NCBI GenBank assembly: GCA_001780285.1
Contig: MFGN01000005.1
Coordinates: 74,200 to 138,199 of the forward strand
Reading direction: 5' to 3'
DNA from: Candidatus Falkowbacteria bacterium RIFOXYD12_FULL_34_57
Lineage (GTDB): Bacteria; Patescibacteriota; Patescibacteriia; Patescibacteriales; UBA12075
DNA length: 64,000 bases
Part shown: in pieces, positions 44,552 to 49,377 of the stretch
How the letters are laid out: each line of letters opens with the position of its first letter
How positions within the stretch are numbered: position 1 is the first letter of the stretch
Program-made: the position numbers and the translations under genes
Notes under the pieces: model-generated
Told to the model about the DNA's origin: nothing
The model's database searches: none
What the model saw: only the letters and a program-made list of their open reading frames with translations

Positions 44552-44579
44552 TTGACCCTACAACATGTTGTGGTATAAT
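44552..44579 (+). promoter_or_regulatory. Promoter of the nrdR-nrdD-nrdG operon
   Basis: TTGACC (44552-44557), 16-nt spacer, TATAAT (44574-44579). The spacer is NrdR box 1. Confidence 0.7.
44558..44573. promoter_or_regulatory. NrdR box 1
   Basis: CTACAACATGTTGTGG, a 16-nt palindrome of the acaCwAtATaTwGtgt type, lying between -35 and -10. Confidence 0.7.
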
Positions 44580-44589
44580 AATAGTAGAG

Positions 44590-44605
44590 ACACAACATGT
44601 AGTGG
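44590..44605. promoter_or_regulatory. NrdR box 2
   Basis: ACACAACATGTAGTGG, centre-to-centre 32 bp from box 1 (about three helical turns, as usual for tandem NrdR boxes). Confidence 0.7.
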
Positions 44606-44741: not shown

Positions 44742-45212
44742 ATGAAATGTCCAGTTTGTTATTATCAAGATACTAAGGTTATTGATTCTAGAGTAGCCAG
44801 CGACGGATTATCTATTAGGCGCCGAAGAGAATGCTTGAAATGCGGGTTTAGATTTTCTACTTATGAATCAATAGAAATACTTGATTTGACAGTAGTGAAA
44901 AGAGACGGTAGTAAAGAACTTTATAATCGAGATAAATTGATTCGCGGCTTGAAAAGATCTTTGGAAAAAAGACCGATTACCGAAGATAAATTTAAAAAAT
45001 TAATTGGTTCTATCGAGCGCGACTTGCAGGTACTAAGAAAAGCAGAAGTAACCAGCAGTAGAGTGGGGCAGATTATCATGAAGCATCTTCGAAAAATAGA
45101 TCAAATCGCCTATATCCGTTTCGCTAGTGTATATCAAGCTTTTGACAATATAGAGACTTTTAGGAAAGAATTAGATAAACTAGTTTCTAAAAAAAAGAGA
45201 AATAATAAATAA
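44742..45212 (+). CDS. nrdR: Transcriptional repressor NrdR (Zn-ribbon plus ATP-cone)
   Basis: MKCPVCYYQDTKVIDSRVASDGLSIRRRRECLKCGFRFSTYE plus ATP-cone. Confidence 0.95.
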   Translation: MKCPVCYYQDTKVIDSRVASDGLSIRRRRECLKCGFRFSTYESIEILDLTVVKRDGSKELYNRDKLIRGLKRSLEKRPITEDKFKKLIGSIERDLQVLRKAEVTSSRVGQIIMKHLRKIDQIAYIRFASVYQAFDNIETFRKELDKLVSKKKRNNK

Positions 45213-45330
45213 GATTTTTGGGATGTTTAAGATGTTTGAGATCTTTAGGATTAAGTTAAAATATTTGTATTTAATTTTTAAATATCCCAAACATCTTGAT
45301 GATCTTAATTATCCTATTAAATAAATTCCC

Positions 45331-47526
45331 ATGTCGAAAATAAAACAAATTAAAAAAAGAAATCGAGAAATAGTCGATTTTGATCAGGAAAAAATCGTAA
45401 ATGCTATTCTGAAGTCGCTTAACGCCGTAGAGCGTTTGGATTCTAATGAAAAACGCGCCAGAAAATATAGCAACGAGGTAGTGTCTATTCTTAATAAGAA
45501 ATTTCACAGAGAAACTATTCCATCCGTAGAAGAAATTCAGGACATAGTGGAAGAAGTGCTTATTTCTAATAGAGAAATAAAAACAGCCAAAGCATTTATT
45601 CTTTTTCGTGATCAAAAAGCCCGAATTAGGGAATTGGATTCCCGCATAGATTCTAATGATATTATGGAGAGCTACTTAAAACGCTCAGATTGGCGCGTCA
45701 AAGAGAATTCTAACATGAGTTATAGTTTACAGGGTTTGAATAATCATTTAGCATCAGTTATTTCTTCTAATTATTGGCTTTCTAAGGTTTATTCTGCTAA
45801 TATTAGGGAAGCTAGGCAAAATGGGGAAATTCATATTCATGATTTACAATTACTCGCACCGTATTGCGCCGGTTGGGATTTGAAAGATTTATTAATACGT
45901 GGATTTAAAGGCGTTTCTGGCAAGATAGAGTCTAAGCCGCCCAAGCATTTTAGGACTGCCCTCGGACAAATTATCAACTTTTTTTACACTATTCAGGGAG
46001 AAGTGGCCGGAGCTCAGGCATTTTCCAGCTTTGATACTTATTTAGCACCATTTATTCGTTATGATGATTTAAATTATAGAGAAATAAAACAAGGTATTCA
46101 GGAATTTTTGTTTAATATCAATGTGCCGACCAGGGTTGGTTTTCAGACACCTTTTACCAACATCACCATGGATATTACTCCATCTAAATTGATTGGAGAA
46201 GAATATGTGATTATTGGAGGAGAGCTGCAAAAAGAAAAATATAAGGATTTTCAGAAAGAAATGGATATGCTGAATTTGGCTTTTGCTGAAGCAATGATGG
46301 ATGGAGATGCTAAGGGGCGGGTTTTTACTTTTCCGATTCCGACATATAATATTACTAAAAATTTTGCATGGGATTCTCCGGTAGCTGAAAAAGTTTTTGA
46401 TATGACTGCTAAATATGGTATTCCTTATTTTTCTAATTATATTAATTCTGATATGGATCCGGATGATGCTCGTTCTATGTGTTGCCGTTTGCGTCTTGAT
46501 AATCGTGAGCTTCGGAAAAGAGGCGGGGGGTTATTTGGCGCAAATCCCTTAACCGGTTCAATCGGCGTAGTTACCGTGAACTTGCCCCGAGTTGGGTATT
46601 TATCGAAAACACGGGAAGATTTTTTCAAAAGACTGGATAATACTATGCAGATTTCCAAAGAAAGCCTGGAAATGAAGAGAAAGGTTTTGGAGGATTTGAC
46701 CGAGAGAGGGCTTTATCCTTATGCGCGTTATTATTTATCCGATATAAAGGAAAGGTTTGGTACTTATTGGCAGAATCATTTCGCTACTATCGGTATAGTG
46801 GGAATGAATGAAGCTTTGCTCAATTTTAAACTCATTGGCAAAGATATTACCACTCCGGAAGGGAAAGCGTTTGCGATAGAAGTTTTGGACTATATGCGGG
46901 AAAGAATGATGGATTTTCAAAATGATACTAATAATTTATACAATTTAGAAGCAACTCCGGCTGAAGGGACATCCAGAAGGCTGGCGCAAATTGATAAAAA
47001 TAAATATCCGGATATTATTGTGGCCAATGAGGTGGATGTGCGGGAAAAGGGCGCTACCCCCTATTATACTAACTCCTCCCAGCTTCCGGTCGGTTTTACC
47101 GATGATTTGTTCGAGGCGCTTGATTTGCAGGATGATGTACAAACCAGATATACCGGCGGTACGGTTCTGCATGGATTTTTAGGAGAGGCTATGCCTAACT
47201 CTGAATCTGTAAAAAAATTAGTGAAAAATATTGCCACTAATTATACTTTGCCGTATTTTACTATTACGCCAACATTCTCAATTTGTCCCAAACACGGATA
47301 TATTTCCGGAGAACATCATTTTTGTCCAAAGTGCGACGCAGAGATGGGATATAATGAAAAGAATAGTAAAACTAGAGTAGAGGTAAAATTTGAAGAAGAT
47401 GAAGAAGGGGTTATAAATAACGAAAGTCAAGCTATGAATATTGAAACTGCATCTAATGAAAACATTGATTCTCTGACCAAACCAGCCTTTGATATAGAAA
47501 GGAATTTGATACAGGCAATAGCTTAG
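45331..47526 (+). CDS. nrdD: Anaerobic ribonucleoside-triphosphate reductase large piece (ATP-cone, core, Zn site) lacking the glycyl-radical motif
   Basis: ATP-cone N-terminus, NrdD core (SMCCRLRLDNRELRKRGGGLFGANPLTGSIGVVTVNLPR, LYNLEATPAEG, YYTNSSQLPV), Zn site ICPKHG...FCPKCD. The last ~60 aa are acidic and non-homologous, with no RVxGY. Confidence 0.88.
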   Translation: MSKIKQIKKRNREIVDFDQEKIVNAILKSLNAVERLDSNEKRARKYSNEVVSILNKKFHRETIPSVEEIQDIVEEVLISNREIKTAKAFILFRDQKARIRELDSRIDSNDIMESYLKRSDWRVKENSNMSYSLQGLNNHLASVISSNYWLSKVYSANIREARQNGEIHIHDLQLLAPYCAGWDLKDLLIRGFKGVSGKIESKPPKHFRTALGQIINFFYTIQGEVAGAQAFSSFDTYLAPFIRYDDLNYREIKQGIQEFLFNINVPTRVGFQTPFTNITMDITPSKLIGEEYVIIGGELQKEKYKDFQKEMDMLNLAFAEAMMDGDAKGRVFTFPIPTYNITKNFAWDSPVAEKVFDMTAKYGIPYFSNYINSDMDPDDARSMCCRLRLDNRELRKRGGGLFGANPLTGSIGVVTVNLPRVGYLSKTREDFFKRLDNTMQISKESLEMKRKVLEDLTERGLYPYARYYLSDIKERFGTYWQNHFATIGIVGMNEALLNFKLIGKDITTPEGKAFAIEVLDYMRERMMDFQNDTNNLYNLEATPAEGTSRRLAQIDKNKYPDIIVANEVDVREKGATPYYTNSSQLPVGFTDDLFEALDLQDDVQTRYTGGTVLHGFLGEAMPNSESVKKLVKNIATNYTLPYFTITPTFSICPKHGYISGEHHFCPKCDAEMGYNEKNSKTRVEVKFEEDEEGVINNESQAMNIETASNENIDSLTKPAFDIERNLIQAIA

Positions 47527-47692
47527 TAAAAATTACAAACAACAAATTTAAAATTAGAACCAATTAATCCTCTATGGGGGAGGGGTTTATATATTAATTT
47601 AATAAAAAAACAGAGTGTAAAAATATTGTCGCCGCAGGCGACTCCTAAAGTTTTTAACTTTTAGTTTTGCATTTTAAGTTTTATAAAATATT

Positions 47693-47836
47693 ATGACACC
47701 AACAAAAACAAAAAGACAAGCTTGCGAGGTTTATAGCCGCGTATCCGGATATTTGCGTCCGGTAAGCCAATGGAACGACGGCAAACAGGCAGAATATGCG
47801 AATCGTAAGACTTTTAATGTTTGTGATTGTAAATAA
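47693..47836 (+). CDS. 47-aa ORF encoding the NrdD C-terminal glycyl-radical motif (not in the ORF track)
   Basis: MTPTKTKRQACEVYSRVSGYLRPVSQWNDGKQAEYANRKTFNVCDCK. EVYSRVxGYxRPVxxWNxGKxxE is the class III RNR glycyl-radical segment. Different frame from nrdD, with an in-frame TAA 6 nt upstream of the ATG. Confidence 0.6.
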   Translation: MTPTKTKRQACEVYSRVSGYLRPVSQWNDGKQAEYANRKTFNVCDCK

Positions 47837-47909
47837 AACATGTAATAGATAGCGGGTAACAAGTAACATTTTATCTTGTTGCTTGTTACTTATTATTTGT
47901 TACCTGTTT

Positions 47910-48653
47910 ATGGTAATCGGCGGTTTGCAAAAATTCAGCACCTTGGATTATCCCGGAAGTTTGTCGGCAATTGTTTTTACGCAAGGGTGTAATTTCCGTT
48001 GCCCGTTTTGTTATAACCCTATGCTTGTCTGCCCGAAAACGGGTAGTGATAAAATAGATTCCACTTTGCAAATATGCGAAGAGGGCAAAAAAGTTCATTC
48101 CCAAATAATTGAGGATGACTTTTTTGTTTTTTTAAAAACGCGTCAAGGAAAATTGGATGGAATAGTAGTGACTGGAGGAGAACCAACGATACATTGTGAT
48201 TTGCCCGAATTTATCAAAAAAATCAAGAATATGGGCTTTAAAGTAAAAATTGATACCAATGGTACTAATCCGGACATTTTGAGTAAATTAATCAAAAATA
48301 AAATGATTGATTATGTGGCCATGGATATAAAATCTTCATCAAAAAAATACGAAGAGGCAATTGGTGCCAGATTTGATTTGAGAAAAGTGTTAAAAAGTGT
48401 TAAAATAATAAAAGATAGCCGAATTCAGCATGAATTTCGCACTACTGTTATTCCTGGATTAGTAGAAAAGCACGACATAGAGGAAATAGGGGGGGTGGTA
48501 GAAGGGGCTAATCAGTGGTTCTTGCAGAGTTTTAAATCTGACACAGATTTACTTGATAATAATTTCAAAGAAGTAATTCCGTATTCTACTAAAATTTTAG
48601 AAGAAATGCGGGAAATTGGCGAGAAATTTGTTGAAAAATGTAGTACGCGTTAA
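47910..48653 (+). CDS. nrdG: Anaerobic RNR activating protein (radical SAM)
   Basis: GGLQKFSTLDYPGSLSAIVFTQGCNFRCPFCYNP (CxxxCxxC) and VTGGEPT. ATG at 47910 preferred to the TTG at 47883. Confidence 0.9.
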   Translation: MVIGGLQKFSTLDYPGSLSAIVFTQGCNFRCPFCYNPMLVCPKTGSDKIDSTLQICEEGKKVHSQIIEDDFFVFLKTRQGKLDGIVVTGGEPTIHCDLPEFIKKIKNMGFKVKIDTNGTNPDILSKLIKNKMIDYVAMDIKSSSKKYEEAIGARFDLRKVLKSVKIIKDSRIQHEFRTTVIPGLVEKHDIEEIGGVVEGANQWFLQSFKSDTDLLDNNFKEVIPYSTKILEEMREIGEKFVEKCSTR

Positions 48654-48655
48654 TT

Positions 48656-48958
48656 ATGACGGAGTTTGAATTTAAAGTATTAGAAACTATAAAAAAAATA
48701 CCCAAAGGAAGAGTAACAACATACGGGGAGGTGGCGAAAGCAATTAGGTCGCCGAAATCTGCCAGGGCGGTAGGAAATGCCTTGCATAAAAACCCCTGGG
48801 CCCCCAAAGTCCCGTGTCATCGGATTGTAAATAGCAATGGAACACTTGGCGGGTATGCCGGAGGCGTAGCCAAGAAAATAAATATTTTAAGAAAAGAGGG
48901 TGTGGATGTAAGAAGGGGGAGAGTTATAAATTTTAAAAACATTTTATATAAATTTTAA
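48656..48958 (+). CDS. MGMT-family protein (methylated-DNA--protein-cysteine methyltransferase DNA-binding/active-site domain only)
   Basis: 100 aa; IPKGRVTTYGEVA and VPCHRIVNSNGTLGGYAGG (PCHR active-site Cys). Starts 2 nt after the nrdG stop. Confidence 0.8.
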   Translation: MTEFEFKVLETIKKIPKGRVTTYGEVAKAIRSPKSARAVGNALHKNPWAPKVPCHRIVNSNGTLGGYAGGVAKKINILRKEGVDVRRGRVINFKNILYKF

Positions 48959-48978
48959 ATAATTTTCGTGTTGTATGT

Positions 48979-49377
48979 ATGAATAATAATTTATCACAAA
49001 CCACCACCCCCGTGAAGTCTGGAGATAAAACGACTGATGCGCGGATGCATGAGAATATGCGGGAGATGTTGGAGCAGAATATTGCTATATCTGAAGAGAT
49101 TAAAAAGAATACCAAATATATAAAAAGATATATTATTTTTTCGCAGATTTTCAGTGTAATTAAAATTTTAATAATTTTGGTTCCGATAACCTGGATAGTG
49201 CTTTATGCACCGCGCGTTATAAATGATATTAAAAAAGATCCTAACATACTTTTTAATAATTCTATTTTTAGCGGCTTGGTAAACAGCATCACGGGAGCGG
49301 TATCGAGCGAAGTAAATAAGAATATCCCGATTAATACAAAGAATATTCCGCCGGAAGTCCAGAAATATTTAAAATAA
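48979..49377 (+). CDS. Hypothetical membrane protein
   Basis: 132 aa, one central TM (IIFSQIFSVIKILIILVPITWIVLY); no family recognised. Confidence 0.4.
   Translation: MNNNLSQTTTPVKSGDKTTDARMHENMREMLEQNIAISEEIKKNTKYIKRYIIFSQIFSVIKILIILVPITWIVLYAPRVINDIKKDPNILFNNSIFSGLVNSITGAVSSEVNKNIPINTKNIPPEVQKYLK

Follow-up and report, generated by a model that had tools for sequence, protein, structure and literature searches.

A probable two-polypeptide class III ribonucleotide reductase in Patescibacteria, with the glycyl-radical segment encoded by a separate 47-residue gene

Class III (anaerobic) ribonucleotide reductases (RNRs), which supply DNA precursors in the absence of oxygen, are often discussed as being near the ancestral ribonucleotide reductase, and to our knowledge every description so far has placed their glycyl radical on the catalytic chain (NrdD). 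Oxygen cleaves glycyl-radical enzymes at the radical glycine, and pyruvate formate-lyase (PFL) is rescued by an autonomous radical protein, GrcA, also called YfiD. In benzylsuccinate synthase (beta and gamma) and 4-hydroxyphenylacetate decarboxylase (gamma), small FeS or regulatory subunits are present and the radical stays on the large chain. YfiD and Y06I are the only spare-part proteins with validation so far, and counterparts may exist for other glycyl-radical enzymes (Andorfer et al., 2021; PMC8683613); such proteins are so far known for PFL alone, the question being open for other glycyl-radical enzymes (PMC8683613, 2021; PMC13450708, 2026). For the split class II RNR of Pseudomonas aeruginosa, an extra C-terminal element of NrdJa was proposed to contact NrdJb (PMC9669993). 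In this work, we describe an RNR cluster, nrdR-nrdD-grd-nrdG (44.5-48.7 kb, + strand), in a 64-kb stretch of DNA (hereafter the window) from Candidatus Falkowbacteria bacterium RIFOXYD12_FULL_34_57, a groundwater member of the Patescibacteria or candidate phyla radiation (CPR), in which the sequence of one NrdD is distributed over two open reading frames (ORFs). We report a colinear split with conservation of, and selection on, both pieces, its operon context, recurrent fission across lineages and occasional contiguous forms, and we consider how the two products may work together. The features that carry the argument are as follows.

45331-47526, + strand: nrdD large subunit, 731 aa, with an ATP-cone (aa 6-97), barrel, Zn site and acidic tail.
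47284-47343, + strand: Zn-site segment C652-P-K-H655 ... C665-P-K-C668-D-A-E671, the last profile-aligned part of the large ORF.
47344-47526, + strand: clade-specific acidic C-terminal tail, aa 672-731 (60 aa), ending in ERNLIQAIA (47497-47523), then TAG and TAA.
47527-47692, + strand: AT-rich spacer of 166 nt with two small GC hairpins (47568-47584 and 47628-47642), neither intron nor repeat.
47693-47836, + strand: glycyl-radical subunit (grd), 47 aa, MTPTKTKRQACEVYSRVSGYLRPVSQWNDGKQAEYANRKTFNVCDCK, in the +1 frame relative to nrdD.

The large ORF belongs to the NrdD family, with the barrel, the finger-loop cysteine and profile scores above the curated cut-offs. Its residues 125-671 correspond to positions 1-530 of 562 of the Pfam NRDD profile (PF13597, E 8e-184), and it matches positions 1-549 of 581 of TIGR02487 (527 bits, cut-off 326); NF006126 gives the same colinear picture (1048 bits, cut-off 548). 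The finger loop reads SMCCRLRLD, and both C384 and C385 are invariant in 30 homologues, as are C652, H655, C665, C668, D669 and E671 of the predicted Zn site, which is present. The protein is 100% identical to one in Candidatus Falkowbacteria bacterium RIFOXYB2_FULL_34_18. Since the Pfam and TIGRFAM matches both end at residue 671, the E of CPKCDAE (47341-47343), the break lies directly after the Zn site, and the RVxGY glycyl-radical motif is absent from the large ORF, whose NRDD match ends at position 530 of 562. The following residues, 672-731, found no family match in the profile scans. The missing part is found in the small ORF: its residues 8-41 cover NRDD positions 531-562 (E 6e-10) and TIGR02487 positions 549-580 of 581, so that the two ORFs together follow a single NrdD profile in exact colinearity (Pfam 1-530 and 531-562, TIGR02487 1-549 and 549-580). 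Within the 47-aa protein, the segments QACEVYSR and VSGYLRPVSQWNDGK can be recognized, and the predicted radical glycine is G19 (47747-47749), in SRVSGY. An earlier note, made from the letters of the window, had described a 731-aa NrdD ORF with ATP-cone, core and Zn site that stops at 47526 without RVxGY, an acidic and non-homologous tail of about 60 aa, and a separate ORF holding the segment that normally follows the Zn site; coordinates and profiles agree with each of these descriptions, and the alignment to TIGR02487 and PF13597 that it proposed maps the break.

Compared with the canonical NrdD/NrdG systems (T4, E. coli, T. maritima, P. copri and S. thermophilus), all profile positions are accounted for in the window pair, and ATP-cone, barrel, finger-loop cysteines, Zn ribbon, RVxGY loop, adjacent activase and NrdR control are shared. 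Unlike them, the window has its radical loop on a separate 47-aa product and new sequence at both ends: the large chain gains a DxExGY segment and the acidic tail with its conserved end, and the small chain gains an N-terminus of the MSPIxTxRQ type. With GrcA/YfiD of E. coli and Y06I of T4, the window protein, known from its sequence, has in common that it is a small stand-alone glycyl-radical domain, and in the same manner it would be activated by a cognate radical-SAM (S-adenosylmethionine) activase and inserted in trans into the barrel. In contrast, its family is PF13597 and theirs is PF01228 (Gly_radical), which is absent among its matches, as Pfam at E <= 1 returned PF13597 only and NCBIfam only NrdD models. 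GrcA also coexists with full-length PFL, whereas for NrdD such coexistence was seen only in one locus, L148, described below; since the window contains no other radical domain, the 47-aa protein is read as an obligate subunit and not as a backup. The comparison with GrcA made in the earlier note therefore stands as a functional idea, and falls as regards homology and the role of a spare copy. The NrdJa/NrdJb pair likewise has a C-terminal module of an RNR on a separate downstream gene, in that case a Zn finger and redox tail; however, it is B12-dependent, has no glycyl radical, and its detached part serves re-reduction and not radical storage. The very small partner chain is also a trait of the multi-subunit enzymes with accessory subunits mentioned above.

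A recent disruption that left a pseudogene, or an assembly or frameshift artefact, has to be considered, since metagenome-assembled genomes do hold frameshift errors and the tail is acidic and of low complexity. However, three assemblies of separate origin, namely the ENA scaffold, the Logan assembly (SRR4389122) and the assembly of JGI metagenome 3300002096, are identical to the window base for base over 46493-49036. The 47-aa ORF is on record on 24 contigs. Furthermore, the same architecture, with RVxGY missing and a tail following CPKCDxE, was found in 120 of the 120 closest large-ORF homologues (70-78% identity, 688-723 aa). The search for the same split in relatives was extended to a set of 160 related loci, 80 from GTDB species representatives and 80 from metagenomes, of which 83 are split, the window included, and about 72 contiguous. 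The 82 further split loci belong to Patescibacteria, DPANN archaea, Elusimicrobia and Bacillota, and complete chromosomes such as CP066698.1 are among them; OW818634.1 is a further complete genome with the split. Every split locus with enough downstream DNA carries a small ORF with the radical motif, SRVxGY or, in one large subclade, SRVVGW; these ORFs are 38-115 aa long (median 48). With the purifying selection on both pieces described below, the split in the window is almost certainly no artefact, and the suggestion of a recent disruption or assembly error can be set aside.

The small ORF behaves as a protein-coding gene. Codon-position entropy over 76 distinct sequences is 0.81, 0.62 and 1.55 at positions 1, 2 and 3, which shows protein-level purifying selection; with variation highest at third positions, the small ORF is therefore a real gene. 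Residues R8, C11, E12, S15, R16, G19, Y20, P23, W27, N28, K31, E34 and R38 are invariant in 58 stand-alone homologues. The N-terminus reads MTPTKTKRQ in the window, and its typical MSP-type form, MSPIxTxRQxC, is shared by 53 small ORFs out of 83. When the 47-aa protein served as query, a word-indexed search retrieved 130 proteins, all of 41-79 aa, some of them named 'anaerobic ribonucleoside-triphosphate reductase' by NCBI. A profile search run exhaustively over 1.84 billion cluster representatives yielded 4938 matches at E <= 0.001; 149 of the best 150 representative matches are stand-alone proteins of 48-115 aa. Pfam, NCBIfam and PHROGs hold no dedicated model for this small protein, which matches only the C-terminal end of full-length NrdD models. 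The small proteins are already in sequence databases, unremarked; in full-text literature searches, with most subscription journals outside their coverage, neither a split NrdD nor an autonomous radical protein of the NrdD type was found described.

Two features of the radical domains were observed in passing. Many of their C-termini, in small ORFs as well as in contiguous relatives, end in cysteine pairs such as CDCK, CGC, CPTC, CSTC and NCC (47822-47833 in the window; L016, L019, L081, L082, L111, L116, L124, L142 and P0386-P0388), and some large-subunit tails likewise end in CSTC, CPEC or CGEC; these pairs recall the C-terminal redox-shuttle cysteines of class I and II RNRs. A 66-aa protein, P0241, has two tandem radical-domain motifs (..CEVYSRVVGYLSPVSHWNEGKKEEW, repeated), which may reflect a genuine duplication or an error of assembly.

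The end of the large ORF is likewise read as protein. Given the local base composition, 60 codons would stay open by chance with a probability of about 0.002. Tails of 20-60 aa, most of them ending in ..ERxIIxAxA, are present in the 120 closest homologues, and over the last nine codons, computed on ten distinct tails of this type, entropy is 1.00, 0.51 and 1.42 at codon positions 1, 2 and 3. The tail end is thus under protein-level purifying selection, and since third positions are the most variable in these nine codons the large ORF is read to its stop, in agreement with the view of the earlier note that the long stop-free tail favours real translation. The C-terminal consensus of the large subunit (47497-47523 in the window, and homologue tails) can be written as ..(I/L)(I/V)xA(L/I/M)A-COOH, an ending that we take to resemble ssrA-type ClpX recognition signals (..ALAA); this end of the chain may serve as a degron or as a docking helix.

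The earlier note had also allowed for a small intron or intervening sequence. Joining at the level of RNA or translation, by a group I or II intron, an intervening sequence, bypassing, a frameshift or read-through, has some points in its favour: T4 nrdD carries a group I intron, the gap has hairpins, and copies of GAGGT stand on either side of 346 nt that, if removed, would leave the two ORFs in one frame. The hairpins are those listed above, close to where the note had located them, though they are weak, and the entire gap folds with z = -2.0. Nevertheless, an Rfam scan of 47250-47900 at E <= 10 found no intron and chance matches only, and the U...G ends expected of a group I intron are obtained with neither of the GAGGT boundaries. 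The gap is conserved neither in sequence nor in length: in blastn searches, gap and tail had no similarity in the 160 related loci or in the rest of the window, and the distance from stop to ATG ranges from -14 to +811 nt (median 85). In 17 loci the ORFs abut or overlap (-14 to +30 nt); the ATG directly follows the stop codon in L026 (Nanobdellota), and the large and small genes overlap in L031, L044 and L080. All three relative frames occur, in 34, 26 and 23 loci. Moreover, the large ORF ends in two consecutive stops, the selection on its last nine codons extends up to the stop, and the ATG and MSPI start of the small ORF are conserved. Variable spacing, the use of all frames and overlapping genes exclude intron, bypassing, frameshift and read-through as general mechanisms, and we consider any such joining highly improbable.

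The repeat at the break was examined separately. GAGGT, read as '..EV' at 47380-47384 and 47726-47730, is real, as the earlier note had remarked, and occurs in four copies in the local 3.6 kb; it is not seen in relatives, whose tails and small ORFs differ at those positions, and we treat the shared '..EV' as a coincidence. Insertion of a mobile element with a 5-bp GAGGT duplication was rejected, as terminal inverted repeats and another copy in the window were both absent and GAGGT is locally frequent.

A further possibility is that the two finished products are ligated, through a split intein or by other means. With the small-ORF profile, PDB searches gave weak matches (E 0.07-0.1) to Npu DnaE split-intein N-fragments (..ECTVYS...PVAQWHD..). 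These matches are non-significant, and what they align is the radical-domain core, homologous to NrdD C-termini; the large chain has no conserved Cys, Ser or Thr after the break and the small ORF has no HN-C/S/T junction. The tails, at 20-60 aa, are variable and disordered, and too short and variable for an intein fragment. A Pfam scan gave no intein or Hint match. The resemblance to DnaE fragments was judged to be due to chance, and post-translational ligation is, in our estimation, extremely improbable.

We consider it very probable that the locus encodes a genuine, functional two-polypeptide class III RNR: the split is clade-wide, both pieces are under selection and the start of the small ORF is conserved, in line with the two-polypeptide NrdD with a detachable radical domain that the earlier note had proposed among its options. 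We infer the way in which such an enzyme would operate, including non-covalent assembly, activation of the free peptide and any advantage in repair. The two proteins would be translated separately, and NrdG with S-adenosylmethionine would remove the hydrogen from the C-alpha of G19 while the small peptide is free or only loosely bound. The peptide would sit non-covalently in the ten-stranded barrel at the canonical radical-domain position, opposite C384/C385, from where the radical would pass to the finger-loop cysteine, with catalysis proceeding as in ordinary NrdD. A detachable radical subunit would limit oxygen damage to the loss of a cheap and replaceable 47-residue cartridge, sparing the cell from remaking a 780-residue enzyme, and the free peptide may give the activase easier access.

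Several points weigh against this two-polypeptide enzyme and should be read together. That the 47-aa ORF is translated is a conclusion drawn from its conservation. No Shine-Dalgarno motif precedes it in the window; such a motif is present before just 10 of the 42 long ORFs of the window, and its absence is uninformative on translation because about three quarters of these ORFs also do without one. In several relatives, a strong Shine-Dalgarno motif does precede the small ORF. In structure modelling, a first AlphaFold2 (AF2) run with the two chains joined and a shallow alignment reached a mean predicted local distance difference test (pLDDT) score of 65 and was uninformative. In a second run, with the chains joined covalently and 25 contiguous homologues added to the alignment, mean pLDDT was 81.6, the predicted template modelling score (pTM) 0.75, and residues 741-770 (small ORF) had pLDDT 74-83; P. 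copri, S. thermophilus, T. maritima and T4 NrdD were the best structural matches. The tail (residues 678-737) is predicted to be disordered, with pLDDT <50 except for a low-confidence helix over the terminal motif. Since the chains were joined and one-piece homologues were in the alignment, this second model is biased toward the canonical fold and docking at the canonical site is partly built in; it is consistent with the small peptide at the canonical radical-domain site, as weak support. Finally, a repair or cartridge advantage is conjectural, and the split could be selectively neutral.

Neutrality is a serious rival for why the split exists. It states that the two-subunit enzyme works, that its fission, a break tolerated in a flexible linker, was fixed by drift in small CPR and DPANN populations, and that the peptide stays permanently bound and plays no part in repair, exchange or regulation; we see this as possible, short of probable. 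Gene fission is common in reduced genomes, and the break falls in a linker between modules. At this place, the sequence of contiguous relatives (Bathyarchaeia, Syntrophales, Syntrophomonas and some Patescibacteria) is CPxCGAxCEVYSRVVGYLRPV, which locates the break in the short linker between Zn ribbon and radical loop, where they vary by 2-8 residues. Furthermore, the tree shows the split state turning into the contiguous one and back, and some one-piece forms have the N-terminal motif of the small ORF. In this neighbour-joining (NJ) tree, built on the catalytic core, nearly all of the main Patescibacteria clade is split, and further splits appear in DPANN archaea, one Elusimicrobia genome, one Bacillota genome and Moraniibacteria; parsimony gives about 12 changes between the split and contiguous states, an indicative number given the rough topology. 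P0402 (MSPQKLERQKC, CPKCDEDDMSPQKLERQKCEVYSRV) and P0437 (CDEEMGY...RRRCEVFSR, CPKCDEEMGYVKGLVPDESRRRCEVFSR) are contiguous NrdDs that keep split-type sequence internally, and would represent either re-fusions or pre-fission intermediates; these forms show, as judged from their sequences, that the split and contiguous states are functionally interchangeable.

Other observations are less easily reconciled with neutrality. Fission appears to have occurred repeatedly, since the same linker is broken in several unrelated lineages with different added parts. The window and most CPR loci are of the MSPI type. L067 and L076 (Moraniibacteria) have a small ORF with its own CxxC...CxxC ribbon, the Zn-ribbon type, and the sister genomes L046, L060 and L078 are contiguous. 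In L071, repeat-rich new ends, REEIEKQIALLEEQL and NIENKISELKTKLEN, are found on both chains and look to our eye like coiled-coil heptads. In the Bacillota type the order is nrdD-nrdG-grd, with a 45-aa ORF behind a strong ribosome-binding site. New conserved sequence lies on both sides of the break: the large chain has DxExGY and the motif at its tail end, and the small chain has MSPIxTxRQ. One locus keeps a full-length enzyme with an extra autonomous copy under purifying selection, and phages carry orphan copies of the radical domain. The recurrence, the new conserved ends, this locus and the phage orphans suggest that the free module is useful in itself; a role of the split in replacing or exchanging the radical module is quite possible, and we propose it tentatively.

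The locus in question, L148 (metagenome contig Ga0116171_10004588, 3490-3890), has a full-length contiguous NrdD followed after about 30 nt by an 85-aa ORF and then by nrdG. The second ORF consists of a CxxC...CxxC Zn ribbon and a radical domain, and the two radical domains of the locus are identical as protein over 34 aa, their 7 nucleotide differences being all silent. This ORF is a candidate for a true spare part of class III RNR, and the arrangement is a plausible precursor of the Moraniibacteria split.

Viral contigs from IMG/VR were also surveyed (L163-L242, with L161 and L162), and 67 of 81 loci carry orphan mini-genes of NrdD-type radical domains (41-160 aa), none of which has an NrdD core or nrdG within 3.5 kb. 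They comprise subfamilies with the CPR-type start MSPIKTKRQEC, with an N-terminal ..NGDLVLDNGVIIPAEKRQxC extension, and with Zn ribbons. Their neighbours are phage genes (replication, head, tail and lysis), for instance a replication initiator, a DnaB-like helicase, a primase and a UvsX-like recombinase in L168; anti-repressor Ant, an HNH endonuclease and a peptidase in L190; and P1-like Pmg head proteins and a tape-measure-like protein in L199. GenBank phage records gave two weak matches only for the orphan protein, so the phage copies are so far known just from metagenomic viral contigs. Carriage by phages is a trait that they share with Y06I. Together with the duplicate in L148, the viral orphans point to a biological use of action in trans, as read from gene content. 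Whether NrdD-type radical domains are widespread, free-standing and exchangeable 'radical cartridges' is a proposal that we hold with reserve, as a fair possibility and not as the expected outcome. Three settings may be proposed for them: obligate subunits in CPR and DPANN, spare parts as in L148, and phage auxiliary genes. In the last setting, by analogy with Y06I of phage T4 (for PFL) and cyanophage psbA (for the damage-prone D1 protein), the phage genes may keep the anaerobic deoxyribonucleotide supply of the host running during infection.

The remaining features of the cluster are listed here.

44552-44579, + strand: strong promoter-like site TTGACC, 16 nt, TATAAT, upstream of nrdR, from the promoter scan (11 of 12 matches, with TG).
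44558-44573 and 44590-44605, + strand: two palindromes overlapping the promoter-like site, CTACAACATGTTGTGG and ACACAACATGTAGTGG, 32 bp apart.
44742-45212, + strand: nrdR, transcriptional repressor of RNR genes, 156 aa (Pfam Zn_ribbon_NrdR, E 4.8e-21; ATP-cone, E 1.7e-16).
47837-47909, + strand: near-perfect hairpin of 73 nt filling the entire spacer between small ORF and nrdG (minimum free energy -32.1 kcal/mol, z = -8.8).
47910-48653, + strand: nrdG, radical-SAM activase, 247 aa (TIGR02495, NrdG2, E 3.5e-60; 202.6 bits, cut-off 131).

Both nrdR and nrdG are intact in their Pfam and TIGRFAM matches, and the nrdG product also matches Pfam Radical_SAM (E 7.6e-22); it would install the glycyl radical on the 47-aa subunit. 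The palindromes at 44558-44573 and 44590-44605 are presumably NrdR boxes, as they fit the known consensus; the nrdG, nrdR and boxes that the earlier note had called intact are all present. The region 44552-44605 is likely to be the control region of the whole cluster. Just upstream of nrdD, between it and nrdR, a 10-bp inverted repeat (AAGATGTTTG and CAAACATCTT, 45229-45238 and 45288-45297) encloses about 50 nt and is distinct from the NrdR boxes.

The hairpin before nrdG has a terminator-like score and reaches the nrdG start codon, and 0 of 200 shuffles fold as well. It could uncouple the expression of nrdG, whether as an attenuator, as a terminator or as a site of processing. It is not conserved: blastn of this spacer gave no similarity in the 160 related loci or elsewhere in the window, and relatives have spacers of 0-200 nt at this place. 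Unrelated long hairpins occupy the same spacer in L017, L083, L093, L100 and L104, and in others it spans just 0-20 nt.

As for the spacer between the large and small ORFs, a promoter scan of the gap in the window returned weak matches only, one of them overlapping the small-ORF ATG. TTTTAAC/TTTTAAG repeats lie at 47652-47683 in the window, and short tandem repeats of about 7 nt stand just before the small ORF in L001, L083, L091, L093, L105 and L117, for example (TAATCCC)x4 and (TAGTTTC)x3 as well as TGAAAAT-like and TAACTTT-like runs. In the SRVVGW subclade (L005, L006, L007, L008, L010, L011, L013, L014, L028, L109, L112 and L118), the spacers share a conserved promoter-like motif seen by eye, TTGTAATTT, about 14 nt, then TTTATAAT, which suggests that the small subunit, and nrdG with it, may be transcribed separately from the large one.

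These results bear on how the family is annotated and understood. Large ORFs of Patescibacteria are called 'ribonucleoside triphosphate reductase' and have no radical site, which resides in a partner of 41-115 aa. A natural and widespread two-chain form would indicate that, in class III RNR, the radical domain is able to function as a module apart from the catalytic chain, and it offers a natural test of whether radical segments swap like spare parts. Split NrdD, the L148 duplicate and the phage orphans make the spare-part question testable with a 5-kDa peptide that is synthetically accessible, and the system constitutes a minimal substrate for studying how activases recognize and radicalize the glycine loop. 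Should the proposal of exchangeable cartridges prove correct, a spare-part system would be known for the first time for a glycyl-radical enzyme other than PFL, and the radical-bearing element of class III RNR could be loaded, swapped and supplied in trans. The phage copies may indicate a new kind of phage auxiliary gene. For the oxygen-exposed and genome-reduced organisms of the CPR and DPANN, the arrangement suggests a cheap upkeep of DNA precursor synthesis.

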